A stretch of DNA of 64,000 bases from an uncultured bacterium (GCA_965603365.1 CBFDCR010000010.1:27425-91424), one strand, 5' to 3'. Shown: positions 1,866-17,910, counted from the stretch's first letter. Notes: a model not told the origin generated them from the sequence alone. Numbers and translations: made by a program.

Positions 1866-2804
1866 TTACGGCTGCAGGTTGTTGAACACCGATTCGTAGA
1901 GGCAGCGGTTGATGACCGCTTCGGCGGGTTCGATCTCCGGGAAAATTGCCTGCCAGGTTTCGGAGTCCTCCATACACAGGTAGAGGGGAATATCGGGGCC
2001 CAGTTGCGAACGGATGGTGTCGCGGGCTCCGTGGAACATCGCCAACCGCAGGGGTTTGAAATAACGGTACTTACCGTCGTAGCCTTTGATCAACTCCCCG
2101 GAAAAGAGTTGAGATTCCGGGTGTTTCAATATTTCGGCCCTCAAGGCATAGGGAAAGCGCAACGTTCCTAAGCTCCACCAGGCTATTCCTTCCGGTTGAA
2201 CCACGCCGGCGATCTCCCGTATCAAAGAGTCGTAAGCATCTTGCCAGTCGCCGACAGCCAGCATGGGGTCGAAGTGAATACCGATCTTATAGCCCCGTTC
2301 CTGCACCGCGGCCATGGCAGACAGCCGGGCGGACAGTGATGGGGTACCTGTCTCCTCTTTGTCGATTATACTCTGGGGATTGAGGGACCAGGAGATCACG
2401 ATATTTTTCACTACCCCTGGGTAAGTTAAGATGTTTTTGACATTGGCCGACTTGGTCTTGAATTCAAATACCACCTGCGGATACTGTTCAAAAAGGGCCA
2501 TGATTCCGGCTGCATAGTTGGCCTGGGGTTCGTATACCAGGGAGTCGGAGAGTTCACCTGAGCCGATGCGCAAATGCTGCTTGCCTTTGACAAAGGCGGC
2601 AAGCTCTCGCTCCATATCCTCGATATTGGTGTAAAAGACCGGCTCCTTGCTCTCCAGGTAGGCCTGCAGGATGCAGTAAGAGCAGTCGTAGGCGCAGCCG
2701 GTGTGCAGATTTAGGTTATAATAACCGCAGGAGACCGTCTCCGGCGAGCAGGGGCAGTGCTTGACAAAATTTCCCTTTTGCCGTTGATACTTAATCACTG
2801 GCAT
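1866..2804 (-). CDS. spore-photoproduct-lyase-family radical SAM protein (SplB-like)
   Basis: The protein is 312 aa with an N-terminal CX3CX2C motif (CAYDCSYC). The overall layout resembles SP-lyase-like radical SAM DNA repair proteins. Confidence 0.7.
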   Translation of the reverse strand: MPVIKYQRQKGNFVKHCPCSPETVSCGYYNLNLHTGCAYDCSYCILQAYLESKEPVFYTNIEDMERELAAFVKGKQHLRIGSGELSDSLVYEPQANYAAGIMALFEQYPQVVFEFKTKSANVKNILTYPGVVKNIVISWSLNPQSIIDKEETGTPSLSARLSAMAAVQERGYKIGIHFDPMLAVGDWQDAYDSLIREIAGVVQPEGIAWWSLGTLRFPYALRAEILKHPESQLFSGELIKGYDGKYRYFKPLRLAMFHGARDTIRSQLGPDIPLYLCMEDSETWQAIFPEIEPAEAVINRCLYESVFNNLQP

Positions 2805-2952: not shown

Positions 2953-2969
2953 GTGTCTCGAAACGCTGC
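2953..2969. promoter_or_regulatory. upstream element copy 1 (GTGTCTCGAAACGCTGC), candidate enhancer-binding-protein site
   Basis: This is an exact 17-bp direct repeat of 3122..3138. It contains the imperfect dyad GTCTCGAAAC centred on TCGA and lies about 265 bp upstream of the sigma-54 element. Confidence 0.45.
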
Positions 2970-3121
2970 ATCTCTGAAATCCCTGGAAAGTATTGATATA
3001 AAAGCGGCAGTGCGTGATAAGGAGTCCCGGAGACAACTTTAGTGTAGGGAAACGGTACAAAGTTGAAAATATCTTATAGCAAAGGCTAAAGGGGGATAAT
3101 ACGGTTTTTGATGGGGGACGG

Positions 3122-3138
3122 GTGTCTCGAAACGCTGC
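3122..3138. promoter_or_regulatory. upstream element copy 2 (GTGTCTCGAAACGCTGC), candidate enhancer-binding-protein site
   Basis: This is an exact 17-bp copy of 2953..2969. It lies about 95 bp upstream of the -24 element, a typical UAS distance for sigma-54 activators, with AT-rich DNA in between. Confidence 0.5.
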
Positions 3139-3216
3139 GTTTTTGCGTGAGTACTCAAATTTGATAAAACGCCCTATATCCTCTAAATAAGACCGTTTTG
3201 AGCCTTTTTTTCAAGT

Positions 3217-3231
3217 TGGCACCATAGTTGC
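3217..3231 (+). promoter_or_regulatory. sigma-54 (RpoN) -24/-12 promoter
   Basis: TGGCAC-catag-TTGC matches the TGGCAC-N5-TTGC consensus exactly, with GG at 3218-3219 and GC at 3230-3231. It lies about 125 nt upstream of the first precursor ATG. Confidence 0.7.
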
Positions 3232-3355
3232 CCTTTCTTAAGAGTCAATCGTCTTTAAAACATAAGGACACCGTCGCTATCCTCGGACGGGTAGATGCGG
3301 GGTTCGTTTTAAAGTGTCCGGGTTGGCAAAAAATAAAACAAGGAGGATTAACACA

Positions 3356-3556
3356 ATGAAAATAAAGAAATTTAAGAACAGCGGTAATCACATCAAGGTC
3401 CAGAACCTGCGCAATGGTGAGATGCGGGCAGTGCGGGGAGGAACAGAGTATACCTGCGGCGGTGGAAGTGGTGATGACTGTACAAAGTTGGCAGTCCATG
3501 TGCCAGATGCTATGGCGATGGCGGAAAAAGCCGATCTTTTGTCAGTGTACAAATAA
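3356..3556 (+). CDS. RiPP-type precursor peptide A (66 aa; 29-aa leader ending RGG, Cys-containing core)
   Basis: ATG at 3356 follows RBS AGGAGGA (3341-3347). Sequence: MKIKKFKNSGNHIKVQNLRNGEMRAVRGG|TEYTCGGGSGDDCTKLAVHVPDAMAMAEKADLLSVYK. The leader resembles double-glycine bacteriocin leaders. It is paralogous to the next ORF and lies directly upstream of an RRE-containing radical SAM enzyme. Confidence 0.8.
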   Translation: MKIKKFKNSGNHIKVQNLRNGEMRAVRGGTEYTCGGGSGDDCTKLAVHVPDAMAMAEKADLLSVYK

Positions 3557-3582
3557 TAATTAAAATTTAAGGAGGAGAAAAA

Positions 3583-3777
3583 ATGAAAAAGACAACCAAT
3601 TTAAACGACCGTAAACACCTCTCCGTCCAGAAACTCCGCAACAGCGAGTTGAAGGCAACTTTAGCAGGTGAAATCATTACTTGCGGCTATGAAGGTGACC
3701 TTTGCAAGAAACTCTCTGTCGAGGTCCCTGGATGTGAAACCCTTCAGAATGAAAGCCACAAAGTGGTCTTAAGTTAG
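3583..3777 (+). CDS. RiPP-type precursor peptide B (64 aa; 29-aa leader ending LAG, 3-Cys core)
   Basis: ATG at 3583 follows RBS GGAGGAG. Sequence: MKKTTNLNDRKHLSVQKLRNSELKATLAG|EIITCGYEGDLCKKLSVEVPGCETLQNESHKVVLS. It shares the leader positions H12, VQ.LRN.E..A and G29 with peptide A, and the core motif TCG..GD.C.KL.V.VP. Confidence 0.8.
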   Translation: MKKTTNLNDRKHLSVQKLRNSELKATLAGEIITCGYEGDLCKKLSVEVPGCETLQNESHKVVLS

Positions 3778-3796
3778 CAAGCAATGCGCCCACAAA

Positions 3797-3852
3797 AGAA
3801 TCCGGTCTCGTATATCCGTCGATATATGAGACTGGATTCTTCTATTTTGTTT
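3797..3852 (+). terminator. long hairpin plus U-tract after the precursor genes (intrinsic terminator or attenuator)
   Basis: Bases 3797-3815 pair with 3822-3840 (19 bp: 17 Watson-Crick and 2 G-U) around the 6-nt loop CCGTCG. The T-rich tract TCTATTTTGTTT follows. The structure sits between precursor B and the first maturase gene. Confidence 0.6.
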
Positions 3853-3886
3853 GAGGATAATATAAGAGGATCAGGAGGTAAACAAA

Positions 3887-5494
3887 ATGAGACTTGAAAC
3901 ACCGCAGTGCAACGATCAGGAGCCAAAAATTACAGGTTCATTCAGAGATGGACTCTTCGGTAATTTACCGGTCGAATTGTTTCGCAGCAAACGGGGCTAT
4001 TACGCTTTCGATGCCCATAACGTGCGCATGGTGACCGTAGACCGGGTGAGTTACGATATTTTGCGGATCTTGCGGGAGCGTGAGGCAGGGGTAGATGAGA
4101 TCGTACGCCTTCTTGACCACCATCCTGCCAAACAGGTTCGAGAGGCGTTTGAGGAATTGATGGCTGTACAGGACGAAGGCTTTCTTCGTCGAGGCAGTTT
4201 TCGTCGCACCCCCCGCTTTGGCAAAACGGATATCCGCATGAAGCAGCGCCTTACCGAGGAGATGGCAGGGTTAACCATATCAATAACCGGCAAGTGCAAT
4301 CTGGCCTGTTCCTACTGCATCTATGGCGGGAACTACGACGCCCAGCGGCAGCTTTGCGGTGCCAGCATGAGTTGGGAGACCTTGAAAAATGCCATGATCT
4401 TCCTGGCCGATAATTCACGCCGTTCCGAAAGCGTACAGGTGGATTTTTTTGGCGGTGAACCGCTTCTTGAACACCGGCTCATCAAACGGGCGGTGGAGTT
4501 CCTGAAATCCCGTATTGGAACAAGAGAGACAAGAGTGGACGTTACTGTGGCGTCAAACGGCACCATATTAAACGACCGCATCCTGGAGTTTCTTGTCAAG
4601 CATAAAGTCTACCTCCAGTTCAGTATTGACGGCAGCCAGGAACAGCACGATCGCTACAGGATCTTCAAGGCGAATCGCCGGGGTAGTTTCAAAAAGATCA
4701 TGGAGAACCTGAAGAAAATCCACATCTTCGATCCGGAGTACTATCGCTCCTATATTCGCATCAAATCGGTTCAGACATCCGATCAAGACAACAGCCATGA
4801 CGATGCGTTCTGGCAGCATCCCCTCGTCAAACCGGTGGTGGAGGAAAAACACTTATCGGTCCTGCAGCTCAGGCCAGACTTTAACATCGAAAAAGATGGT
4901 GACTATTTTGACAGACTTGCCCGCATCGGGGAGCGATCACTGGCGCTGCGTAATGTTGAGACCCTGGATGATGTGCGCCAGGCTTTCCCACAAAAAGAGT
5001 GGCAATTTTTCTACTCTACTATCGCCAGATTCTTTAATGTTCAGGCGACCTACAATCTCTACAAGCGTGATAAGGCCGAAGTTCCCTTTACCAAGGGATG
5101 CTTATACGGATATAAAGAAGGGAATGTAGAACCCTCGGGCAAGATAACCATTTGTCATCTGGCCACCAATTGGGTCATCGGCGACGTTAATGAAGGGCGC
5201 TGGTATTTCGACAGGATTCGCAAATACGACCAACGTGTCCACAGTTGGCGTCCCTGCTCCGGTTGTTTTGCTCAACGTTTTTGTGATCTTTGTCCTGAAA
5301 AAATCGACGGTACAGAGGAAAATTATATAGAAAGCCGCAGCCGTTTTTGCGAGTTTCAGAGGGAAAACTACCGGGCTATATTCTCTTACGCGCTGGCGTT
5401 GTGTGAGGCGAATCCCGGGCTTTGGGACGAAGTGGATCGTTTAATCGAAGTGGGTTATCGCCGCGAGGAGAAAAAAAACAAGAAGGCTGCCTGA
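3887..5494 (+). CDS. radical SAM/SPASM-type peptide maturase with an N-terminal PqqD-like RiPP recognition element
   Basis: RBS AGGAGG is present. The CX3CX2C motif CNLACSYC lies at 4295-4318. The N-terminal ~100 aa look like a winged-helix RRE (VDRVSYDILRILREREAGVDEIVRLL...EELMAVQDEGFL). The C-terminal auxiliary-cluster Cys pattern is CSGCFAQRFCDLC...FCEF. Confidence 0.8.
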   Translation: MRLETPQCNDQEPKITGSFRDGLFGNLPVELFRSKRGYYAFDAHNVRMVTVDRVSYDILRILREREAGVDEIVRLLDHHPAKQVREAFEELMAVQDEGFLRRGSFRRTPRFGKTDIRMKQRLTEEMAGLTISITGKCNLACSYCIYGGNYDAQRQLCGASMSWETLKNAMIFLADNSRRSESVQVDFFGGEPLLEHRLIKRAVEFLKSRIGTRETRVDVTVASNGTILNDRILEFLVKHKVYLQFSIDGSQEQHDRYRIFKANRRGSFKKIMENLKKIHIFDPEYYRSYIRIKSVQTSDQDNSHDDAFWQHPLVKPVVEEKHLSVLQLRPDFNIEKDGDYFDRLARIGERSLALRNVETLDDVRQAFPQKEWQFFYSTIARFFNVQATYNLYKRDKAEVPFTKGCLYGYKEGNVEPSGKITICHLATNWVIGDVNEGRWYFDRIRKYDQRVHSWRPCSGCFAQRFCDLCPEKIDGTEENYIESRSRFCEFQRENYRAIFSYALALCEANPGLWDEVDRLIEVGYRREEKKNKKAA

Positions 5495-5539
5495 CAGAAT
5501 AGTTGGAGACAGATATAGTAGAGAGCCAGGAGCTGAAGG

Positions 5540-6661
5540 ATGAAAAAGCTGTATTTTATAGTCGTTTTATCGGGTCTTTTATATTTTTGTGGTTCTCAGG
5601 CAAAGAATATAGATAAACCCACTCAGGGTGAATGGGATTTTAAATTGAAAAAAGCCTGGGAAATCGGGCAAATAGGCGAAGATGTTCTGGTTGGGATTCG
5701 GGGGATTGGCGTAAATAAAGAGGGAAATCTTTTTTTATGGGACAGCCGGCAATCTACAGTATTCGTATGTAATTCCCAGGGCCAGTTATTATACCACTTT
5801 GGAAGTAGAGGAGAGGGACCGGGTGAAGTACTGGATAAATGGGCGACTCGCCTGTTTCTTACCGATAAGCATATCATTCTTCATGAAGTAAACACCGGCA
5901 GAATTCACTACTTTTCAGACAATGGAGAGTTCGAGAAAACCGAAAAAATATTAAAATTGAAATATGCCCGAGCCTTAAAAACATTTATTGATCCCGACCG
6001 GTTTTTGTTTTTTTTAGCTGAAGAACCTTCGGATAAACATGAAAATATCCTTGGCATTTATGACCTGTCAACTAAAAATTATGAAGTAATAACCAGAATG
6101 CCTGGAAACAAACCTCTGTCTGTAAATGATGAAAAAGCGGGAAATATAACTTTGCATGACCATGATGTTGCTGCTGCTGTAATATGTGCTCAATTTGAGA
6201 AAAAAAAAATATTTTATGGAAGAAATGATGAATATGTCATAACGGGAGTAGATTTAAAAATTAAAAAAACTATCTCCTTCTCCATAACCGGAAGAAAAGG
6301 TAGAAAAATTAGCGAAAAAACAAAAAATAAAAGATTTAGAAATTTGCCTATAAATAAACAATTATTAAAGCTGCTAATTAAAAAGTGTCCGGATAGAACA
6401 AGATTCTTTAACCGGATATTCATTGAAAAGACGGGATTAATATATGTATTTGTGCCCGATTGGGAAAAGACAAACTCTCTTGAAATAGATATATTTTCTC
6501 CAGAAGGAAAATATCTTTATCATTCAATAATCCGGATACCGGATGAATATAACAAAATTCGCAACCTTACTTTTAATTATAAAGATCTTTACTTTACCGC
6601 CGAAGATCAAAACGGCGAGATTAAATTAGTAAAATTTAATATTACCTCTCCAACAATATAA
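5540..6661 (+). CDS. lipoprotein, 6-bladed beta-propeller-like family (unknown function)
   Basis: The signal peptide has a lipobox-like Cys (MKKLYFIVVLSGLLYFCGS). Repetitive beta-strand-rich sequence ends in ...GEIKLVKFNI, typical of TolB-like or '6-bladed beta-propeller' paralog families. The gene is visibly more AT-rich than its neighbours. Confidence 0.6.
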   Translation: MKKLYFIVVLSGLLYFCGSQAKNIDKPTQGEWDFKLKKAWEIGQIGEDVLVGIRGIGVNKEGNLFLWDSRQSTVFVCNSQGQLLYHFGSRGEGPGEVLDKWATRLFLTDKHIILHEVNTGRIHYFSDNGEFEKTEKILKLKYARALKTFIDPDRFLFFLAEEPSDKHENILGIYDLSTKNYEVITRMPGNKPLSVNDEKAGNITLHDHDVAAAVICAQFEKKKIFYGRNDEYVITGVDLKIKKTISFSITGRKGRKISEKTKNKRFRNLPINKQLLKLLIKKCPDRTRFFNRIFIEKTGLIYVFVPDWEKTNSLEIDIFSPEGKYLYHSIIRIPDEYNKIRNLTFNYKDLYFTAEDQNGEIKLVKFNITSPTI

Positions 6662-6714
6662 CAACGACCGAACCGTCCGGCAATATGATCTCCATACTTT
6701 TTGCCTGATTTTCA

Positions 6715-6743
6715 TTGACAATAACATCTTCTATCACTATAAT
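6715..6743 (+). promoter_or_regulatory. consensus sigma-70 promoter (TTGACA-N17-TATAAT)
   Basis: TTGACA lies at 6715-6720, followed by an exact 17-nt spacer and TATAAT at 6738-6743. The element is about 170 nt upstream of the ATG at 6914. Confidence 0.6.
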
Positions 6744-6913
6744 TGGTTCATGGATGCAAAACGATTTTTCTATTCAGCATCTAAAATAACTACACATGTT
6801 CCATGATCGACCTGATGAAGACGGATTGTGCGGCAGAGTAGTAGATGCAGAAAAATATTTCGAACATTATAAAGGTACTTAAAAATGAAATGTAAAAAAG
6901 GGAGGAACAAAAA

Positions 6914-8431
6914 ATGGGCAGAGCAGTACGTGAGGGATTGCCATTTGGCAAAGAGACACCTATTGAGGTAATCGAGAAGATTGGAAAGGACGGCCTCTCA
7001 GGTGGAGTATCGGATGTGTGTTTGTTTCCAACATACAAATGCGACCTGAATTGCTACATGTGCCATGTGCAGCACACCAGGGGCAAGGACGATCCATACT
7101 TGTCCCCGGGGCAGCTAAAAGAGGTATTTGACGATGTGAAGGTAACTACGATGTTCCATCTAGGCGGCGAGCCGTTCGTAAGGCCCGAAATGATGGAAAT
7201 TCTCAAATACTTCGATTCCAGGAGGACGAACCAGATCATTTCCACTAATGGTACCAATGTGACCGAGACAATGGCTGAGGAATTAGCCAGGTTGAAACAT
7301 CTGGTATGTGTCCAGGTCTCCTTGAACGGAACGGGGGAAAATGACAATATCATAAGAGGGTCTTCAAAGGCCTTTGAAACGACAGTTGAAGGTATCAAAA
7401 TCCTTAAAAAGGCAGGTCTTCAAACGTGGATCCACAGCGTGGTCCTGAACGAAAATATCGACGATCTGGCAAACATTGTAAGGCTCGGTGGAGAACTGGG
7501 GGTTGGCATGGTCAATTTCCTTTTCGGCCAGATGATGTCGGCAGAAGAGGCAAAGAAAACAAAGGATGTCATCAGGAAGTGGATAGGCGAAGAGGTGGAT
7601 ATAGGGGGATACATTGGGGAAATCGCTTATTCGAAGGAGCAATTGATCAACAGCGTAAATGCGGCAAAAGAGGAAGGAAAGAGGCTCGGCCTTCAGGTCA
7701 TGTTCTTTCCCCGTGTGTTTGGAGATAAACCGGAGATTTATTGGGATGGTACATTGCTGGAGCAAGAAAGGCCCATATGCCAGATGACCCTCATGCCGCC
7801 CCTTACCCCCATTGTGGGACCCGAAGGAGATGTTTACGGGTGCTGTATAGTAAACAAGAGCTTTGGAAATGTAAAGGAGCAATCATTAGAAGAGATATGG
7901 GATTCGCCCACACTTCGGGCATTCAGGCGGGGCCTTATCAATGACAAACTAATGCCCGTCTGTAAACGCTGTCCCAGCGGTGACATCATCGACCTCTCCG
8001 CCCCCAGGAGGCAATTATTTGCCGACCTTGCCGCCTGGGAGGCATACCTGGAACGCCTGACCAGAGCACTCAATGACCTACCCGAGCTTTCACCTGTCTT
8101 GAATAATATTGCCCCGGTGAGGTTCCAATACGAAATTAGCGATCGCCCCGAATATAACTACTGGCACGTTTTTGAGAAGGACGAGGTTCGCCTGGGGTTG
8201 GGAATAAATAGAGAGGATAATATTCCCAGGCTCATCCATAAGACCGACTTTGATACCCTCAATAAAGTGAATGCAGGTGAAATAAACCCTATCCAGGCAA
8301 CCATGGATGGTACCTATGCCGTAGATGGCGAGATGTCGAAGCTCATGGCCTGCGCCCCGTTAATTCCGCTGACCATCAAGGCACATGGCATCGCCATTGC
8401 GGATGTTAAAGATACCGACAGGGAGGGATGA
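6914..8431 (+). CDS. radical SAM enzyme with a partial SPASM/twitch Cys region and a C-terminal SCP2-like domain (paralog 1)
   Basis: RBS GGGAGG is present. CDLNCYMC lies at 7040-7063. The mid-protein region reads PICQMT...GDVYGCC...GNVKEQSLEEIWDS...PVCKRCP. The C-terminal ~100 aa match the SCP2 pattern (HKTDFDTLNKVNAGEINPIQATMDGTYAVDGEMSKLMACAPL). Confidence 0.75.
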   Translation: MGRAVREGLPFGKETPIEVIEKIGKDGLSGGVSDVCLFPTYKCDLNCYMCHVQHTRGKDDPYLSPGQLKEVFDDVKVTTMFHLGGEPFVRPEMMEILKYFDSRRTNQIISTNGTNVTETMAEELARLKHLVCVQVSLNGTGENDNIIRGSSKAFETTVEGIKILKKAGLQTWIHSVVLNENIDDLANIVRLGGELGVGMVNFLFGQMMSAEEAKKTKDVIRKWIGEEVDIGGYIGEIAYSKEQLINSVNAAKEEGKRLGLQVMFFPRVFGDKPEIYWDGTLLEQERPICQMTLMPPLTPIVGPEGDVYGCCIVNKSFGNVKEQSLEEIWDSPTLRAFRRGLINDKLMPVCKRCPSGDIIDLSAPRRQLFADLAAWEAYLERLTRALNDLPELSPVLNNIAPVRFQYEISDRPEYNYWHVFEKDEVRLGLGINREDNIPRLIHKTDFDTLNKVNAGEINPIQATMDGTYAVDGEMSKLMACAPLIPLTIKAHGIAIADVKDTDREG

Positions 8432-8434
8432 ATA

Positions 8435-9952
8435 ATGGTAGTAGAGAAAATAGGCTGCGGTGTGAGCAGGCGCGAAGGGATGCCCCTGGGCAAGGATACG
8501 CCGCTAGAGGTCATTCAAAAGATCGGGGCAAGCGGACTTTCCGGTGGAATTCACGATGTTTGCTATTACCCGACCTTCAAGTGCGACTTGAATTGTTACA
8601 TGTGCCTTGTAAAGCACAGGAAGGATAATATTGTCACTCCTATGTCCTCAGAGCAGGCGAAGACTGCCTTTAGGGATGTTAAAACCTTATTCTATCTAGG
8701 AGGAGAGCCCTTCACGTGCGGCAATACCCTGGAATTAATGAAACACTTCGACGATAATGGAATAAACCAGATCATCTCCACAAACGGAATCCACATCACC
8801 CAATCCACGGCAGAGAAGCTGGCGGAACTGAAAAAGCTGGTTGTCATACAGGTCTCATTGAATGGCTCGGGCGAAAATGATAACGGCATAAGAGGATGGT
8901 CACAGGCATTTGAAACAACGGTAGATGGCATCAAGGTTCTCACTAATGCCGGCTTACCCGTATGGATTCACTGCGTGATATTGAACGAAAACATAGACGA
9001 TCTTGTTAATGTTGTCAAACTGGGTGTGGAGTTGGGGGTTGACGCGGTTAATTTCATCTTTGCCCATGTGACGACCCCCGAAGAGATCCAGGCCACGAAA
9101 GAACTATTGAAGGAATGGACCGGCCAAGATGTGGAGGTGAATGGTTACGTTGGGGAATTGTCATATTCGGAAGAGCAATTGGTAAACAGCATCAATGCCG
9201 TAAAGGAAGAGGGAAGAAAAAATGGCATCCAGATCATGTTTTTTTCAAAATTGTTCGGGGACAGACCCGAACTCTACTGGCAGGGAAAATTACTGGAGCA
9301 AGAAAACCCCATTTGCCAATTAACCCTGATGCCACCGCTTACTCCGGCCATCGGACCCGATGGTGACGTTTTTTTATGTCCCTACATCGAAAAGAGTTTC
9401 GGTAACGTGAACACAGCTACCCTGGAGGACATCTGGGACTCGGAACAACTTCAAGCCATCCGCAGGGGAATGATCAACGGTAAGATGTTGCCCATTTGCA
9501 GACGCTGCCCTTGCAGCGATGAGATCAATACGCCCACATCTGGAGAACAAGGGGCCGTGAACAAAGCCCTCTGGGAAACTTATTTAAAGAACTTAACCAA
9601 AGCGCTCAATGATCTCCCGGAGGTTCGACCTATTTTAGAAAATCTCGCCTATGCCCCCGTGGTCTTCCAATACCACATCACCAATCGCCCCGAATTTAAC
9701 TACTGGCATGCCTTTAGAAAGGATGGTATCTACCTGGGTATGGGTGAGAACGAGGAAGAAGATGTCACAAAGCTCATCCACTCCACCGACCTTGATACCC
9801 TGAGAAAGGTAAATTCAGGGGAAGCAAATCCCGTGCAAGCGACCATGGCAGGAACCTACTCCGTGGATGGTGACATGACGATCCTCATGTCCTGTTCGCC
9901 GTTACTACCGTTAACGGTAACAGCACACGCTATTACTGCCAGGCAAGATTAA
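8435..9952 (+). CDS. radical SAM enzyme with a partial SPASM/twitch Cys region and a C-terminal SCP2-like domain (paralog 2, tandem duplicate)
   Basis: The gene starts 3 nt after the previous stop. It is the same length (505 aa) and colinear with 6914..8431. CDLNCYMC lies at 8582-8605. It carries PICQLT...GDVFLCP...GNVNTATLEDIWDS...PICRRCPC and the SCP2-like tail (HSTDLDTLRKVNSGEANPVQATMAGTYSVDGDMTILMSCSPL). Confidence 0.75.
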   Translation: MVVEKIGCGVSRREGMPLGKDTPLEVIQKIGASGLSGGIHDVCYYPTFKCDLNCYMCLVKHRKDNIVTPMSSEQAKTAFRDVKTLFYLGGEPFTCGNTLELMKHFDDNGINQIISTNGIHITQSTAEKLAELKKLVVIQVSLNGSGENDNGIRGWSQAFETTVDGIKVLTNAGLPVWIHCVILNENIDDLVNVVKLGVELGVDAVNFIFAHVTTPEEIQATKELLKEWTGQDVEVNGYVGELSYSEEQLVNSINAVKEEGRKNGIQIMFFSKLFGDRPELYWQGKLLEQENPICQLTLMPPLTPAIGPDGDVFLCPYIEKSFGNVNTATLEDIWDSEQLQAIRRGMINGKMLPICRRCPCSDEINTPTSGEQGAVNKALWETYLKNLTKALNDLPEVRPILENLAYAPVVFQYHITNRPEFNYWHAFRKDGIYLGMGENEEEDVTKLIHSTDLDTLRKVNSGEANPVQATMAGTYSVDGDMTILMSCSPLLPLTVTAHAITARQD

Positions 9953-9968
9953 ATGTAAAAGGAGGCAT

Positions 9969-11333
9969 TTGAGAATGGATTGGGAAGCCGAGGTTGGAGA
10001 GATATTTAAAAAACTTGTTGCCCAGGTTCCGGACCAGTTCCGTCCCATGGTGGAGCCGCTGCTGCACGACACTGCAGAGAAAAAATGCGTCGAGAGGAAC
10101 GCCGGCGTGGTCAATAATGACGACCTGATAACCGCTCTGTTCGATATTACCCCCGAGCCCTTCAAGGCCCAGGCCATAGACAACTGCAAGGCCATCGGCA
10201 TTGACCCGCAGAGATATATAGAGCTCAAAGAGGTACAGGAACAGTATAAATTAAGCTGGGAGAAGTTCGGCAAGGCGTTTCACCCTGGCAACAAGCACTT
10301 CGCCATGTACATTACGGACAGGTGCAACCAGAAATGCCTCCACTGTGCCGCAGATTCCGAAGAGCATCGGGAGGAGCTTTCCACCGACCGGTGGATACAG
10401 ATCGTGGAGAACCTCGAATTCGGCCTTCGTAAGGAGGGGAGGCGCGGGGTCTACATATGGTTCGGCGGGGAGCCCACCTGCCGCCAGGACCTACCCGAGC
10501 TGATCAAGTACTGCGGCGATAAAGGATACCACCAGGCCTTGATCACCAATGGTATACTTTTCGACGAGGACCTGGCAAAGTTCTGTGCCGACAACGGTAT
10601 GGGCCACCTGTTCGTCAGCTTCGACAGCGCAGACCCTGAAAAGAACGACAGGATCAGGGGCGCAGCCCATTCACTCGAGTATGCCAGAAAGGCAGTGGAA
10701 AACGCCCTCAAGTACGGGATATTCGCCTGCGGCTCCACCACCGTAATGAAACAGAACATCGATGAACTGGAGGATATAAAGAAGATGGCCGAGGCGTGGG
10801 GGGCTGCCCCCTATTTCAGGGCGGTGGTGAAGCAGAAGAAGGCGGCCGAGAACTGGGACGAGATCGGGCTTTCTACCGAGGAATACAAGACGCTGTACGA
10901 TTTCAAGTACACACATGTCATCGATGCCATAAGGGAGGGGAAGGGTGAGGCCCTGCCCATATACTCCATCTTCGAGATGGTGCCCTTTATGGAAAAACCC
11001 CTGAATAACAAGGAGCTCACGGCTCTGGAGTGGGGCGTTGGTTGTCAGGCCTGCCGGATATTCAACGGCATCGATGTCAACGGCGATGTCTTTCCCTGCG
11101 GCTATCCCTCCAACCTGATACTGGGCAATGCCCTTACAGACAGCTTTGAAGACATCATGAACTCACAAATCTACAAGGATATTCGCGATAGAAAACGTAA
11201 CGGAAAATGCGCTGGATGCCACCACCTCGATCTCTGCGGTGGGGGGTGCAGGGTACATGCAGAATGCGATACCGGCGACTTTTTCGCCTCCTTTTCATAT
11301 TGCTGGCACCAAAACGACCACCACCATGCTTAA
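9969..11333 (+). CDS. radical SAM/SPASM enzyme with an N-terminal PCP_red-like helical domain and a His-rich C-terminus
   Basis: CNQKCLHC lies at 10323-10346. A full 7-Cys SPASM pattern is present (CQAC...PCGY...GKCAGCHHLDLCGGGC). The N-terminal ~95 aa (DWEAEVGEIFKKLVAQVPDQFRPMVEP...) resemble the PF08369-type domain. The protein ends WHQNDHHHA. Confidence 0.75.
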   Translation: MRMDWEAEVGEIFKKLVAQVPDQFRPMVEPLLHDTAEKKCVERNAGVVNNDDLITALFDITPEPFKAQAIDNCKAIGIDPQRYIELKEVQEQYKLSWEKFGKAFHPGNKHFAMYITDRCNQKCLHCAADSEEHREELSTDRWIQIVENLEFGLRKEGRRGVYIWFGGEPTCRQDLPELIKYCGDKGYHQALITNGILFDEDLAKFCADNGMGHLFVSFDSADPEKNDRIRGAAHSLEYARKAVENALKYGIFACGSTTVMKQNIDELEDIKKMAEAWGAAPYFRAVVKQKKAAENWDEIGLSTEEYKTLYDFKYTHVIDAIREGKGEALPIYSIFEMVPFMEKPLNNKELTALEWGVGCQACRIFNGIDVNGDVFPCGYPSNLILGNALTDSFEDIMNSQIYKDIRDRKRNGKCAGCHHLDLCGGGCRVHAECDTGDFFASFSYCWHQNDHHHA

Positions 11334-12577
11334 CGGCCGTAGAGTTGGGGGATGATCTCCTGCCTGGTGTATACTTTTCCCTTCAGGTCCACGTAGACCA
11401 CCTGGTCTGTGGTCTCCACTCGCCAGAAGGGGTAGGCCCGGCTGTAGGTGAGGTTACAGGGGGTAAAGACCATGGTGGCCCTGATCTCGCTCGTTACGTC
11501 CCGGCTCTCCAGTTTCAAGAATCCTGAAGCCGCCTTGATCGCCTCATCTTTCGGGAGATATTCGACGGGGCGGCCAAAAGAGGCGACCTCCTCAAAATCC
11601 CCGGTAGAGCCGTTAATGATCACACTGATGCTGGAGCGATCCTGATCGACCTCGCTGTTTAAGGCAGAAGTAAAATTATCGCCCGCTTTGGCATAGGGAA
11701 TGATGTAGTAGTAGGGAACCCATTCGGCCTCGGCCATTTCAAAGGTGATCTCTTCCCGCACCAGGATCGGCTCCAGATTTTGGGTATCTCCGTCGTCCAA
11801 CGCTGCGTACGACGGGTGTTTGGCAGCCAGATCCAATTGGTCGATATAGTTTTCAGAGTACTGCAGGGCCTCGGCCTCCGAAAGCTCGGGTGTGCCTCTT
11901 CGATCCACCAGATCGGCACTCACCGATCCCTGGATGTCCGGGGGTTCGATAAGGGCCACATATTTGTTGTACCAGGTGCCCGTGAGGGTGACGGGATTTT
12001 GCCACCTGGTATCGTACCAGACCGTGCCGGTCATGGTACTGACCTGGCCGACGCCGATAGGCCAGGGGTCGTGGATGGTGATTTCCAACAGTTCGGGGTC
12101 GCTGCCCCAGACCGGCTCGATATCGGTCACATAGCCCACCACGTCGACCCAGTGGTAACCGCTGTTGACCAGGGTGGTAACGGGGTAACTGTTGTAATTC
12201 ATCCAGAAGAGGATCTGGAACATCAGTTCTTCCCGTACATCGTATGACTTGAGCGACCATATCCCCACCTGGGGTGGGTTGAGAGTCGGGTCCATCAGGG
12301 TGCCCCGCATACCCTCAGGGTCGGTGGCCCAGCCCGGTTCGCCGCTGTTGTAGGTCTGGATGAAGGTCCATAGATAAGATTGTTCAAAATAGATGGATGG
12401 GTAGGGGTCGGGATAACCGTTAAAGATCATCTGGGCACAGGCAGGCCCGCTCCAGATGCTGTTTTCCTGGCCGTACAGGGGGATCGTCAATGCCACCTCG
12501 TAGTCGGCTAAGAGGGCTGTCTGAAGGCCCAGTAACAGAAAAATGATGCAAAAAACCGTTGAGATTCGTCTTAACAT
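11330..12577 (-). CDS. secreted papain-fold cysteine peptidase, C39-like (Peptidase_C39_2-type), with a C-terminal PepSY-like region
   Basis: A signal peptide is present. The catalytic-Cys context is QENSIWSGPACAQMI, with downstream GYHWVDVVGY and IHDPW as His and Asp/Asn candidates. Its stop codon overlaps the convergent radical SAM gene's stop (TTAA). Confidence 0.6.
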   Translation of the reverse strand: MLRRISTVFCIIFLLLGLQTALLADYEVALTIPLYGQENSIWSGPACAQMIFNGYPDPYPSIYFEQSYLWTFIQTYNSGEPGWATDPEGMRGTLMDPTLNPPQVGIWSLKSYDVREELMFQILFWMNYNSYPVTTLVNSGYHWVDVVGYVTDIEPVWGSDPELLEITIHDPWPIGVGQVSTMTGTVWYDTRWQNPVTLTGTWYNKYVALIEPPDIQGSVSADLVDRRGTPELSEAEALQYSENYIDQLDLAAKHPSYAALDDGDTQNLEPILVREEITFEMAEAEWVPYYYIIPYAKAGDNFTSALNSEVDQDRSSISVIINGSTGDFEEVASFGRPVEYLPKDEAIKAASGFLKLESRDVTSEIRATMVFTPCNLTYSRAYPFWRVETTDQVVYVDLKGKVYTRQEIIPQLYGR

Positions 12578-12607
12578 GCTTGTCCTCCTTTTTTTATTTT
12601 TGGCTAT

Positions 12608-13567
12608 CTAGCCGCCGTAATAGGGGATGGGATAGGCGGCGGCATAACCCACGTAATTACAACCGTAGATAATCCACATAAAACCACCCTCGGTTTCTTG
12701 ATCGATTCGACCGTCTCCGTTGATATCTACGCCGCCCCAGTCGGTGTCCCAGGAGTTCTTCAGCAGCCAGGCGCCGGCAGGCCCCAGGCTGTCGTCCCAG
12801 CCGCATAAGGCCACACAGTGGTTGAGCTCGGAACCTGTGCAGTGGTCAAACACACCGCCGCTGTAGGCCTGGAACCAATAATCGGCGACGATGCCCACCG
12901 CCACCGAGCCGTAATCCATGATGGCCTGTTTGATGTCGTTCACCGGCGGAACACTGCCGCTGTTTCCCACCCAATCCCAATCGTAGATGAAATAGAGATG
13001 GGAGCAGGAGTGATTACAGGGTTTTTTATAGCCCACATAGGGATAACAGGTCTCTGTCAGCGCGCCCTCGTTCATGAACATGTAAAAATTGATAAAGCCC
13101 CCCTGGCAGCTCCAGCCCCAGGGGTTACAGTCCAACAGCCACTGCTCCGATAGATCCTCTTCGGTGCTCATCATCTTCTTGATCAGTCCCTCGACAGCAC
13201 TCGCCATGCAGAAGGCCCAGCAACTGCCGCAGGCCCCCTGATCCTTGGCCGGCGTATAATAACCGATGTAGCGGGAGGGCAGATCCAATCGGACGGTGAA
13301 ATTCTGATCGTCGGCTTCCACTCTGGTGCTGGTCTCCCCCATGGCCAGCTCCGTCTTAAAACAACATAACTGGCTCAAGGGATACTGGCAGGCGGAGTTG
13401 TAGTCCACCGTGAAGGAATAGCCCCTCTCGTTAATCTCCTTTCTCATTTGTTCCAGTTGGTCTTGCCAATCGTTCTCGCTGATTGTTGTGGTTCCCTTTA
13501 TTCCTGTTACCAGGATTAATGAGAAAACCACAATCGTTAAAGAAAAAACAAGGAAAAATTTTTTCAT
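12608..13567 (-). CDS. secreted papain-family (C1A) cysteine peptidase
   Basis: A signal peptide is present, and the canonical motifs are KDQGACGSCWAF (Cys), LNHCVALCGW (His) and LLKNSWDTDWG (Asn). Confidence 0.85.
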   Translation of the reverse strand: MKKFFLVFSLTIVVFSLILVTGIKGTTTISENDWQDQLEQMRKEINERGYSFTVDYNSACQYPLSQLCCFKTELAMGETSTRVEADDQNFTVRLDLPSRYIGYYTPAKDQGACGSCWAFCMASAVEGLIKKMMSTEEDLSEQWLLDCNPWGWSCQGGFINFYMFMNEGALTETCYPYVGYKKPCNHSCSHLYFIYDWDWVGNSGSVPPVNDIKQAIMDYGSVAVGIVADYWFQAYSGGVFDHCTGSELNHCVALCGWDDSLGPAGAWLLKNSWDTDWGGVDINGDGRIDQETEGGFMWIIYGCNYVGYAAAYPIPYYGG

Positions 13568-14178: not shown

Positions 14179-14835
14179 CTAAAATTCTAATTTATAGATA
14201 TATAATCTTTCCGTTTCATCGTGACTTTTACTGGCCAATAGATAGCCGTCGTCCGAGATGAAAAAAGGGTTTAAATTTTTATCAACCGAAAGCCTAACTT
14301 TTGGGTTTTTGGTTTTACCGTCGAAGATGAGACAATCACAGCCCACGGTCTCGCCGAATTCCTTTCGATATTTCAATTTCGTTAAAAAAACGACAAAGTG
14401 ACTCTTGTAAACAAGAATCGATCTGATAAAAGGCACATAGGCAATCGGGGGATATTTAACCGGGAAATCCAGGAAATGGGAAGGGAATGTGTACTGCTTC
14501 TCTATTTCATATTGAAATTGATCCTGATATTTCCCATCCACCGAATAGACAAAAAATTCAACCGGGTTGTTGGGATAGACGAAAGAGATGAGCATTCTAC
14601 CGCTGCCTTTATCGATGCCGATTTTAGGGTTCAGATAAAAACTCATTTACAGCGCCTTTTGGGAGAGCTTTCTCCCTGTATTGATGTGAATGGGTGTTTC
14701 ATCAAAAAAAGAGTAGGTCGAATACGAATGGGTATCGATATTCCTTAGATCTGCCGGAGCACCTTTCCACTTTGATTCAACTGCCGGTGGACGTTCGTAT
14801 TTTAAATTTTGCGCCGATTTCCTTTGTTCATTCAT
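14179..14835 (-). pseudogene. remnant of a 6-bladed beta-propeller-family gene (two ORFs separated only by an in-frame TAA; N-terminally truncated)
   Basis: ORFs 14835..14647 and 14646..14179 are in the same frame, with TAA (14649-14647) immediately followed by ATG. There is no signal peptide. The C-terminal part (...LIFDGKTKNPKVRLSV...ERLYIYKLEF) resembles the tail of the 5540..6661 protein, and the region is equally AT-rich. Confidence 0.4.
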
Positions 14836-14859
14836 GGAACGGGTCGTCCGACACTACCT

Positions 14860-14908
14860 GGACATGAAATCCCTGCTCCGCCGAAGTATTAAGGAGGCCT
14901 TCGCATCA
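14860..14908. repeat. dispersed 49-bp repeat, copy A
   Basis: GGACATGAAATCCCTGCTCCGCCGAAGTATTAAGGAGGCCTTCGCATCA matches 38697..38745 at 43 of 49 positions by my hand alignment. Confidence 0.7.
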
Positions 14909-15027
14909 TGAGCCTTAACCAGGAACTCATTCAAAAACGATGCCAGGAGATTGCCGATTCTTTGAAGAGTAAAAAAGGGGGCACGCGAAAAATGTCCTTT
15001 TCCCAGAGCCACGTCGTAGTTTTTTAA
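14908..15027 (+). pseudogene. short HepT/DUF86-like N-terminal remnant (39 aa)
   Basis: ATG follows RBS AAGGAGG. MSLNQELIQKRCQEIADSLKS resembles HepT/DUF86 N-termini. It overlaps the stop of a 25-aa upstream ORF by ATGA, as in MNT-HepT pairs. It is far too short to be functional. Confidence 0.3.
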
Positions 15028-15078
15028 ACCGCCCCAGGTATCCTTAGTCAAAGCTGAAGAGTATGGGGCGTGAGTCTA

Positions 15079-15201
15079 TTATAAGGTCTCGAAGTCTTTC
15101 GGGGAGAGACCGGTCAACTCGGCGATTTCAGCGCTGCCCTCTTCGCCGAAGAGCTTTTTAAAGCCGACATCGGTATAGGAATTAATATACCGCGCCTTCA
15201 T
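15079..15201 (-). pseudogene. internally deleted Rpn-family (PD-(D/E)XK nuclease/transposase-like) gene remnant, 40 aa
   Basis: MKARYINSYTDVGFKKLFGEEGS matches the hallmark N-terminus of Rpn-family proteins (..YINP.TD.GFKKLFGEE). It is fused directly to a short C-terminal-like tail (AEIAELTGLSPKDFETL). Confidence 0.6.
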
Positions 15202-15310
15202 CGCCGCGTTTCCATTTTTATATTCTGTTAGCAATTTTAAACGCAATCGTTCTATTTTTCAACAGCAAAACAAGCACCTTAAAATTTCTCCGTGCCAGCG
15301 GGTTGGGGGA

Positions 15311-17779: not shown

Positions 17780-17910
17780 AAACTGCTCCTTTGGCGTAAA
17801 GATTTACGATTTTAATATAGTGACTATTTTAACCGATTTCCCCAAAATAACAAGGGGGCAAATATATTTTTATCAGAAATTCAGGTCAGCCCCGATAGTT
17901 ACCATGTAAA

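Follow-up and report, generated by a model that had tools for sequence, protein, structure and literature searches.

A sigma-54-controlled RiPP-type operon with paired precursors and a CteB-like maturase, and its probable juxtaposition with two independent gene modules in an Aminicenantes-like genome

Among peptides made by ribosomes and modified after translation (RiPPs) that are matured by radical S-adenosylmethionine (rSAM) enzymes, the SCIFF/CteB system yields a ranthipeptide, CteB having initially been described as a sactisynthase. In thuricin CD, two different precursors (Trn-alpha and Trn-beta) are encoded in tandem beside rSAM maturase gene(s), and the core has its cysteines in the N-terminal half, ahead of a C-terminal segment. 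Both of these thuricin traits are mirrored by pepA and pepB, two precursor genes located within positions 2953-13567 of a 64,000-nt stretch of DNA (CBFDCR010000010.1:27425-91424, referred to here as the window) from an uncultured bacterium, Aminicenantes-like as judged from how its homologues are named. An initial annotation had interpreted this entire locus as one RiPP system with four rSAM enzymes and two secreted peptidases. The comparative analysis presented here indicates that the locus probably brings together three mutually independent modules, i.e. a RiPP-type operon, an rSAM trio and a peptidase pair, in a part of the genome with an atypical composition.

According to the map of open reading frames (ORFs) and domain scans, the genes are arranged in the order pepA, pepB, rSAM1, propeller, rSAM2, rSAM3, rSAM4, a gene for a 415-aa protein and a gene for a C1 peptidase, and AGGAGG-type ribosome-binding sites precede both peptide genes and all enzyme genes. 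Module 1 (2953-6661) is a conserved, self-contained RiPP-type operon, and the proposal that pepA, pepB and an adjacent rSAM-SPASM enzyme with a RiPP recognition element (RRE) constitute a genuine sigma-54-controlled RiPP-type system was borne out. It consists of the following features.

2953-2969, plus strand: activator-like element 1 (GTGTCTCGAAACGCTGC), 264 bp before the -24 element
3042-3058, plus strand: degenerate middle copy of this element (GTGTAGGGAAACGGTAC), located 175 bp upstream of the -24 element
3122-3138, plus strand: activator-like element 2, with the same sequence as element 1, located 95 bp upstream of the -24 element
3217-3231, plus strand: sigma-54 promoter TGGCAC-N5-TTGC (TGGCACcatagTTGC), with the -24 GG and -12 GC at canonical spacing
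3356-3556, plus strand: pepA, 66-aa A-type precursor, AGGAGG ribosome-binding site
3583-3777, plus strand: pepB, 64-aa B-type precursor, AGGAGG ribosome-binding site
3796-3851, plus strand: hairpin with a 21-bp stem (stem-loop 3796-3841) and T-run, between pepB and rSAM1
3887-5494, plus strand: rSAM1, 535-aa peptide maturase with RRE, radical SAM and SPASM domains (CteB/CcpM-like; profiles, AlphaFold2 model and Foldseek)
5540-6661, plus strand: NHL/DUF5128 six-bladed beta-propeller, secreted or lipoprotein (domain scans)

The PepA leader ends in ...LRNGEMRAVRGG and is followed by the core TEYTCGGGSGDDCTKLAVHV...DLLSVYK, while the PepB leader ends in ...LRNSELKATLAG and precedes the core EIITCGYEGDLCKKLSVEV...HKVVLS. 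Both ORFs are called as unnamed genes in the NCBI annotation, and the pair, first noticed as two paralogous peptides of 64-66 aa with strong ribosome-binding sites, was shown to be under purifying selection (pN/pS, the ratio of non-synonymous to synonymous divergence, 0.20-0.71, at a near-saturated pS of 0.42-0.98). Peptides of this one family adjoin rSAM1 homologues in the window and in the related loci designated L001-L006, L010, L091-L094, L096, L101-L104 and L108-110. In a close clade of such loci, the peptide genes are located directly upstream of the rSAM1 homologue, mostly as an A/B pair (A-B-A-B in L006), with an A-type pattern of ...LRNxEMRAxxGG (leader) and TEYTCGxGxGDDCxKLxVHV...DLLSVYK (core), and a B-type pattern of ...LxNSELKATx[GA]G (leader) and EIITCGxxGDLCKKL[ST]VV...HKVVL (core). 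The close-clade leader pattern preceding the core, L-x3-E-[LM]-x2-[AVT]-x-[GA]-G, fits the double-glycine consensus.

In a distant clade, the peptides are encoded directly downstream of the enzyme and possess K-rich leaders without a GG motif, with a core of ...C-P-[GR]-[DYTN]-C-x-x-L-T-V-[VI]... that ends in a hydrophobic strand (e.g. LTIEI, LVVAV or LIVVL). Distant-clade precursors with a compact C-P-G-D-C-x-x-L-T-V core were located at L010:2081-2600 (in tandem copies), L096:592-920, L101:10389-10640, L102:434-635 and L103:2184-2440. The common denominator of both clades is a C-x(2-8)-C-x-x-L-x-V core with a beta-strand-like C-terminal tail. No Pfam or NCBIfam model matched the precursor peptides, even at E=10, and a profile of PepA and PepB returned just 18 matches among 1.84 billion representative proteins, 14 of which are small peptides. 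The core motif, which the initial annotation could not place in any known RiPP family, belongs to a precursor family present in no curated library and not found in the literature.

The associated maturase, rSAM1, carries its CX3CX2C motif as CNLACSYC at residue 137 (PF04055, E=1.3e-15), followed by a SPASM region of the form C405-x12-G-x4-C423, C457-x2-C-x5-C-x2-C469 and C488, of which all seven cysteines (C405, C423, C457, C460, C466, C469 and C488) are invariant in 16 homologues. Neither the Pfam SPASM model nor PF05402 matched rSAM1. The PqqD-like RRE that had been ascribed to this enzyme was instead supported at the levels of profile and structure. A profile of the rSAM1 family matched CteB in the PDB (5WGG, E 1.9e-41) from CteB residue 9 onwards, and the match therefore covers the N-terminal recognition domain of CteB. 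The AlphaFold2 model of rSAM1 (mean predicted local distance difference test score of 82) represents residues 29-96 as three strands followed by three helices (beta3-alpha3), and Foldseek retrieved CteB as the first match (E 4e-20, ~500 columns). The five best NCBIfam matches were CcpM, RumMC, SCIFF maturase, PapB and lachnocin maturase, with QhpD in seventh place. Compared with the curated cut-offs, all scores were too low (CcpM 213.7 against 500, RumMC 146.6 against 720, SCIFF maturase 141.4 against 425 and PapB 138.6 against 340). Given this combination of a CteB-like fold and sub-cut-off scores, rSAM1 is therefore regarded as a new family of RRE-rSAM-SPASM peptide maturases, and PepA/PepB together with the rSAM1 family appear to represent a RiPP undescribed so far, predicted to be of the thioether type.

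With slightly better than even confidence, the formation of a thioether from the invariant core Cys is the likeliest chemistry of rSAM1. The best matches in sequence and in structure are to a thioether-forming enzyme (CteB, E 1.9e-41 and 4e-20), the four top class-named NCBIfam matches (CcpM, RumMC, SCIFF maturase and PapB) are maturases of thioether peptides (sacti-, ranthi- and SCIFF peptides), and a Cys, situated in C-x-x-L-x-V, is the only invariant residue of the core. Other aspects of the family speak against a thioether. The first core Cys is not invariant, being replaced by Trp in one B-type peptide, so that only the second core Cys is invariant in the family; moreover, no acceptor residue could be identified in the peptide cores, nor is one conserved beside the cysteines, so that homology is what the thioether assignment is drawn from. 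These observations would suit a genuine module 1 in which rSAM1 installs a C-C or C-O cross-link, epimerises a residue or alters the C-terminal strand, the cysteines serving as a disulfide or as metal ligands. Such an enzyme could also account for scores under the cut-off of every thioether-maturase model, and the further structural neighbours retrieved by Foldseek include anSME, TigE, ChlB and the epimerase EpeE. In view of the thioether-forming best matches, this alternative is considered rather unlikely, and a thioether is retained as the predicted product. The precursor with Trp in place of the first Cys (GETITWGSSGDLCEKLTVVV; protein P0236) is encoded at L091:638-840 and L092:1042-1245.

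Neighbourhoods were collected by exact look-ups (L001-L006) and by scanning metagenomes with a C-terminal alignment specific to the family (L090-L114). The sample comprised 32 rSAM1 loci, of which ~22 are distinct and 11 have several kb of flanking sequence, and the combination of precursors with rSAM1 was seen again in ~22 distinct loci. A scan of genome contigs with the full-length rSAM1 alignment was swamped by generic rSAM patterns and Clostridia CcpM-like genes, and L010 was the only true family member among its 80 loci. The rSAM1 clade was shown to be sharply separated, the scores of its 74 clusters ranging from 367 to 1182 bits, against 144 bits for the match that follows, a named CcpM. 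Named members are few and belong to Candidatus Aminicenantes, Deltaproteobacteria and Pyrinomonadaceae, while L010 derives from Polyangiaceae. Identity to rSAM1 is 66-81 % in the close clade and ~43 % in the distant clade. No close homologue of rSAM2, rSAM3, rSAM4, the 415-aa protein or the C1 peptidase was present in any of the 32 rSAM1 loci, which demonstrates that the modules are separable.

The promoter of module 1 was confirmed as an exact sigma-54 motif: TGGCAC-N5-TTGC at 3217-3231 is the sole match without mismatch within the 64 kb window. In L001, L003/4, L005, L006, L091/92 and L093, too, the precursor genes have an exact or one-mismatch version of this motif upstream, in agreement with the proposed sigma-54 control of the peptide operon. 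The duplicated upstream element recognised in the initial annotation is an exact 17-bp direct repeat at 2953 and 3122, which is not expected by chance as it was matched by none of 100 shuffles, and a degenerate third copy is located between the two, at 3042. The three window copies share the consensus GTGT-N(4-5)-AAACG-N(2-3)-AC. The outer two elements recur in L001 and L005 within 1 bp of their distances in the window (264 and 95 bp before the -24), related elements are situated 94-95 bp before the -24 in L001, L005 and L006, and the block AGTG..GAAACGG.ACA, which corresponds to the middle element, is aligned and conserved in the window, L001, L005 and L093. These three positionally conserved elements are consistent with a phylogenetic footprint of (activator-like) enhancer-binding-protein sites. 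No Sigma54_activat gene was found in the 64 kb window; such genes flank the operon in L002, L004 and L006.

Between the promoter and pepA, ~110 nt of 5' untranslated region (3236-3355) is conserved in L001, L005 and L093, with an insertion of 50-75 nt right behind the promoter in L001 and L005. A structured RNA in this region was considered and rejected (RNAalifold -0.81 kcal/mol, unconvincing covariation and no Rfam match).

A hairpin behind the peptide genes had been noticed previously, with a stem of 19 bp; its presence was confirmed and the stem was found to measure 21 bp. The 96-nt segment 3775-3870 folds at -34.8 kcal/mol (z-score -5.1), and the hairpin was found in all close-clade loci (L001, L004, L005, L006, L092 and L093), where it occupies the equivalent position and shows compensatory changes. 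A hairpin of unrelated sequence occupies the same place in L002. By analogy, it probably functions as an attenuator or stabiliser that holds the precursor mRNA in excess over the enzyme mRNA.

The last gene of module 1 encodes the AT-rich beta-propeller lipoprotein of the initial annotation (GC content 0.34, with a GC content at third codon positions, GC3, of 0.29, compared with 0.63-0.82 in the housekeeping genes of the window), with a signal/lipobox-like sequence at its N-terminus. A propeller gene follows rSAM1 in six of the seven distinct close-clade loci (including L001, L005, L006, L091/92 and L093) and in none of the distant loci. The propeller has diverged far more than rSAM1 (30-34 % identity to its counterparts, against 77 % for rSAM1 in the loci concerned), through either repeated replacement or diversifying selection. 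It is probably a lineage-specific extracytoplasmic partner of the system.

A possible sequence of events in module 1 can be proposed. An enhancer-binding protein encoded outside the window would bind the three upstream sites and activate the sigma-54 promoter, giving rise to a transcript that carries two different precursors, A-type and B-type, with the conserved hairpin keeping precursor mRNA above enzyme mRNA. rSAM1 would hold the leaders through its N-terminal RRE and, by analogy with CteB, CcpM, RumMC, PapB and QhpD, may form a thioether by radical chemistry, with the help of two auxiliary Fe-S clusters, linking the conserved core cysteine(s) to a carbon atom in a different residue of the core. 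The double-glycine-type leader would imply later cleavage and export by proteins encoded elsewhere, and the fast-evolving NHL propeller lipoprotein may be an extracytoplasmic partner with a function in immunity, in processing or in binding.

Module 2 (6715-11333) is a sigma-70-driven rSAM trio, separate from the RiPP operon, and is preceded by a promoter that the initial annotation had overlooked.

6715-6743, plus strand: sigma-70 promoter TTGACA-17-TATAAT, matching at 12 of 12 positions, in the 252-bp gap before rSAM2
6914-8431, plus strand: rSAM2, 505 aa, radical SAM domain with partial SPASM and SCP2-like tail (domain scans)
8435-9952, plus strand: rSAM3, 505 aa, paralogue of rSAM2 with SCP2 tail (domain scans)
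9975-11333, plus strand: rSAM4, DUF2621-like N-domain with radical SAM and SPASM domains (domain scans and homologue starts)

The ORF of rSAM4 opens with a TTG codon at 9969, and its homologues begin at ATG, so the ATG at 9975 is probably the start. The description of rSAM2 and rSAM3 as a tandem pair of rSAM/SPASM enzymes with SCP2-like tails was upheld, rSAM3 scoring above the Pfam SCP2 cut-off of 21.3 (22.3 bits) and rSAM2 below it (17.8 bits). In L115, a Thorarchaeota locus, a stand-alone 132-aa protein without a Pfam match and the C-terminus of a U32 protein share 54-56 % identity with the tails, and a protein with a weak Pfam SCP2 match (L115:19366-19743) shares 31-36 %. For rSAM4, the rSAM/SPASM assignment and the additional N-terminal domain were confirmed, and the proposed resemblance of this domain to PCP_red was not: all 13 homologous copies of the ~110-aa domain match DUF2621 (PF11084, best E-value 3e-8), while PCP_red (PF08369) matched one of the 13, at 0.058, and not the window copy. 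A U32 protein also carries this domain, as do prenyltransferases, at one end or the other. In the window, the DUF2621-like copy (~100 aa) is encoded at 9975-10310 and the SCP2-like copies (~120 aa) at 8024-8404 and 9566-9931; in L115, the domains occur at 11554-11952, 16543-17892 and 14381-16432. The two small domains are thus common to four classes of protein in the same clusters (rSAM, prenyltransferase, U32 and stand-alone), which suggests a common handling of one hydrophobic substrate, and they may represent common substrate- or partner-docking modules.

Homologues of the trio were observed in archaea as well as in bacteria. A Thermoplasmata gene shares 65 % identity with rSAM2, proteins labelled Thermoplasmata, Promethearchaeota and Thorarchaeota are among the rSAM3 homologues at 54-70 % identity, and rSAM4 has 74.5 % identity across 451 aa with a gene of a Thermoplasmata contig of 3.6 Mb (L007), a locus that also carries archaeal ribosomal protein genes. 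Neighbourhoods of rSAM2-4 homologues were compared in four distinct loci (L007, L008/9, L115 and L116). An Orf2-type aromatic prenyltransferase (PTase_Orf2, ABBA) adjoins the rSAM2-4 homologues in all four; two of the four, L115 and L116, add two U32-family proteins, stand-alone SCP2 proteins and B12-binding rSAM proteins, one of which has a lipid-biosynthesis family as its best NCBIfam match, and a FAD (flavin adenine dinucleotide) oxidase is present in the L115 cluster only. The cassettes span 6914-11333 in the window, L007:7709-12894, L008:5925-12896, L115:4890-21202 and L116:1766-15987. None of these four homologue loci contains a PepA/PepB-like ORF, and no RRE was found in rSAM2-4. UbiT (SCP2) and UbiU/UbiV (U32) form an established O2-independent quinone-hydroxylation system (PMC6747719), and on account of this SCP2/U32 combination rSAM2-4 were assigned to an uncharacterised pathway for a lipophilic small molecule. 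As judged from these gene contexts, the most likely substrate of rSAM2-4 is a prenylated, lipophilic small molecule rather than PepA and PepB. The cassette, common to archaea and bacteria at 55-75 % identity, looks like an undescribed anaerobic pathway subject to inter-domain transfer. Literature searches for rSAM+SCP2+SPASM, DUF5128+rSAM, Aminicenantes or sigma-54 RiPPs and archaeal U32/SCP2/prenyltransferase combinations returned nothing specific.

A role of rSAM2-4 in tetrapyrrole or other cofactor maturation (AhbD/NirJ-like), or in an unseen peptide system, is improbable. It would agree with their best NCBIfam matches (AhbD, NirJ2, MftC and WgkB, all far under cut-off) and with the one N-domain copy that touches PCP_red at E 0.058. 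However, PTase_Orf2 accompanies the cassette in four of four clusters, two of which also have U32, SCP2 and a B12-binding rSAM with a lipid-biosynthesis best match, and neither tetrapyrrole genes nor conserved small ORFs were seen in the homologue clusters, which leaves a prenylated-lipid pathway as the preferred assignment. Elsewhere in the window, 19 kb away from the cluster, a 607-aa B12-binding rSAM protein is encoded at 30535-32358 (plus strand), followed by an Nramp transporter; it is just 22 % identical to the B12-binding rSAM protein of the L115 cluster.

Module 3 (11330-13567, minus strand) encodes a secreted C1 peptidase and its C39-like partner and is separate from the RiPP operon.

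11330-12577, minus strand: 415-aa protein, secreted, from a C39-like family, with Ser in place of the canonical catalytic Cys (family alignment)
12608-13567, minus strand: secreted papain-family (C1) cysteine peptidase with intact catalytic motifs (PF00112)

The initial annotation had described a convergent operon of a C1 and a C39-like peptidase, both secreted. The C1 enzyme was confirmed (PF00112, E 2e-37, 129.8 bits; signal sequence; motifs QGACGSCWAF, NHCVALCGW and KNSWDTDWG). The 415-aa protein has 57 homologues, of which the few named ones are mostly from Aminicenantes. The window copy has no Pfam match, and Peptidase_C39_2 (PF13529) is matched by 10 of 26 aligned family members (best E-value 4.8e-6), so that the C39-like call is right at the level of the family. 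The nucleophile site reads WCGAA[SC]AQM in distant members, WSGPACAQM in the window copy, and carries G or A in close relatives; the His (HW) and Asp (DP) motifs are retained in the 415-aa protein. The canonical catalytic Cys implied by the earlier peptidase assignment is thus absent, and the protein is probably non-catalytic, or else uses a non-canonical nucleophile. Sequence and profile searches of the PDB, and Foldseek with a good AlphaFold2 model, returned nothing significant for this protein; the best Foldseek match, the papain-fold deubiquitinase ZUFSP (probability 0.63), was not used as evidence. The catalytic Cys is variably lost across the family, as is the His in some members, which suggests a pseudo-peptidase or protease-regulatory role. 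In L118, a 415-aa homologue adjoins a serpin (8313-9662, minus strand, and 10001-11260). The 415-aa ORF was also considered as the missing prenyltransferase and rejected, as no similarity was found.

On an Aminicenantes chromosome (L117), the orthologous pair occurs together (C1 peptidase 53 % and 415-aa homologue 52 % identical), with neither rSAM1 nor the peptides nearby. This pair accordingly recurs alone and, as stated above, is missing from all 32 rSAM1 loci; membership of the two secreted peptidases in the RiPP system was therefore not upheld. The C1/415-aa pair appears to be independent of the RiPP operon, and comparative genomics lends no support to a role in leader removal.

Several observations weigh against a composite of three independent modules. 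The composite arrangement is retained in two sister contigs, although these are >90 % identical and hence not independent evidence. The stretch that separates the propeller gene from rSAM2 yielded no plus-strand terminator, which makes sigma-54 read-through into rSAM2-4 possible. The prenyltransferase and U32 genes found beside rSAM2-4 elsewhere are missing from the window, so the trio could be repurposed here. No leader peptidase or exporter for GG-type leaders was found within 64 kb, in line with the absence of a peptidase-containing ABC transporter (PCAT) or ABC exporter reported in the initial annotation, and the secreted cysteine peptidase nearest to the GG-leader peptides is the C1 enzyme. 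Many of the comparison loci, moreover, are short contigs.

Several features would suit a single nine-gene RiPP system in which four rSAM enzymes modify the peptides in turn and the secreted peptidases remove the GG/AG leaders extracellularly: the genes are contiguous, rSAM1 to rSAM4 are co-oriented, the arrangement persists in the sister contigs without a strong plus-strand terminator ahead of rSAM2, and GG-type leaders require a papain-fold peptidase in a window that has no PCAT. Such a system is nevertheless very unlikely. rSAM2-4 and either peptidase are found in none of the 32 rSAM1 loci, so that the claim of four rSAM enzymes and three accessory domains in one RiPP system did not stand. 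Orthologues of rSAM2-4 reside in archaeal and bacterial prenyltransferase clusters, two of them also with U32 and SCP2 proteins, that have no adjacent small peptides and resemble a cofactor or lipid pathway; for these three genes, this is an outcome that the initial annotation itself had named as refuting its claim. In addition, rSAM2 has its own perfect sigma-70 promoter, rSAM2-4 lack an RRE and share their extra domains with non-peptide enzymes, the C39-like protein lacks the canonical Cys, and the peptidase pair occurs in L117 away from rSAM1 and the peptides. A hybrid, in which the RiPP operon of this Aminicenantes lineage captured archaeal-type rSAM2-4 for tailoring of PepA and PepB through sigma-54 read-through (e.g. 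by lipid-like modification or extra radical cross-links), with the C1 enzyme trimming the GG/AG leader, amounts in essence to the system of the initial annotation and is likewise regarded as very unlikely. The juxtaposition of three modules is therefore preferred. In terms of composition, the GC3 values of pepA, pepB and rSAM1-3 (0.52-0.58) are below those of the housekeeping genes of the window (0.63-0.82), and on this basis the whole stretch looks like an accessory island that gathers unrelated modules.

Further genes of possible relevance were observed around the operon and its relatives. A spore-photoproduct-lyase-like rSAM gene (window 1866-2804, minus strand; PF20903, E 3.6e-17) is located ~150 bp upstream of the first activator-like element and is divergent from the sigma-54 operon; it represents the fifth rSAM gene of the neighbourhood and has no counterpart in related loci. 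Related loci encode additional Cys-rich small peptides with GG leaders and, in the case of L006, an additional rSAM gene (L006:8259-8411, minus strand, 14958-15155 and 15506-16900). Peptides that match Lant_leader_dom are encoded near the rSAM1 operon in L004 (4217-4426, minus strand) and near the 415-aa homologue in L118 (7958-8164), in neighbourhoods with several RiPP-like genes.

The rSAM1 family constitutes a clean rSAM-RiPP family that lends itself to testing and stems from anaerobes that have received little study (Aminicenantes-like bacteria, Deltaproteobacteria and Polyangiaceae), its minimal unit being one enzyme with one or two precursors. Unusually, its A and B precursors look like an obligate pair, its sigma-54 enhancer architecture shows a phylogenetic footprint, and the hairpin between its cistrons is conserved. 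For genome mining, the locus carries a caution, as counting neighbouring rSAM genes had inflated the size of the system, which includes one rSAM enzyme and not four. rSAM2-4 point to a separate, uncharacterised cassette that may represent an anaerobic route to a prenylated aromatic compound or lipid, and this inter-domain rSAM/prenyltransferase cassette is the most intriguing by-product of the analysis.

Compared with known systems, thuricin CD differs from the system described here in having two maturases, an ABC transporter and three Cys per peptide, and in its occurrence in Firmicutes; no sequence similarity to it was detected, and the peptides described here lack any family match. The close-clade leaders fit the consensus of the double-glycine leaders of class II bacteriocins, which are cleaved by C39 PCATs, whereas there is no PCAT or ABC exporter in the 64 kb, the local C39-like protein lacks the canonical Cys and the distant clade has no GG leader. 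As regards rSAM2-4, the closest parallel is provided by UbiT/UbiU/UbiV combined with ABBA (Orf2/NphB-type) clusters, the homologues being accompanied by PTase_Orf2 in four of four loci and by U32 and SCP2 in two of four, with the SCP2-like domain carried by rSAM2 and rSAM3 themselves (PMC6747719 for UbiT/UbiU/UbiV). In contrast to the Ubi pathway, the U32 proteins of rSAM2-4-type clusters score far under any curated cut-off, multiple rSAM-SPASM enzymes do not belong to the known Ubi pathway, and the window has the three rSAM genes only.

CcpM (TIGR04068) is the best NCBIfam match of rSAM1, over nearly its full length (residues 30-500), but rSAM1 is not a member of this family, because it scores 213.7 bits against a cut-off of 500; true CcpM proteins are 25-30 % identical to rSAM1, and the precursors described here are not Cys-rich. 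The best match in both sequence and structure remains SCIFF/CteB (PDB 5WGG/5WHY), which shares with rSAM1 an N-terminal RRE, an rSAM core and a SPASM domain with two auxiliary clusters, as well as an adjacent Cys-containing precursor. On the SCIFF maturase model (TIGR03974), rSAM1 reaches 141 bits against a cut-off of 425. SCIFF has six cysteines and is found in Clostridia, whereas the precursors described here contain one to three Cys, form an A/B pair with a double-glycine-type leader, and occur in Aminicenantes, Deltaproteobacteria and Polyangiaceae, under sigma-54 control and with an NHL propeller as partner.

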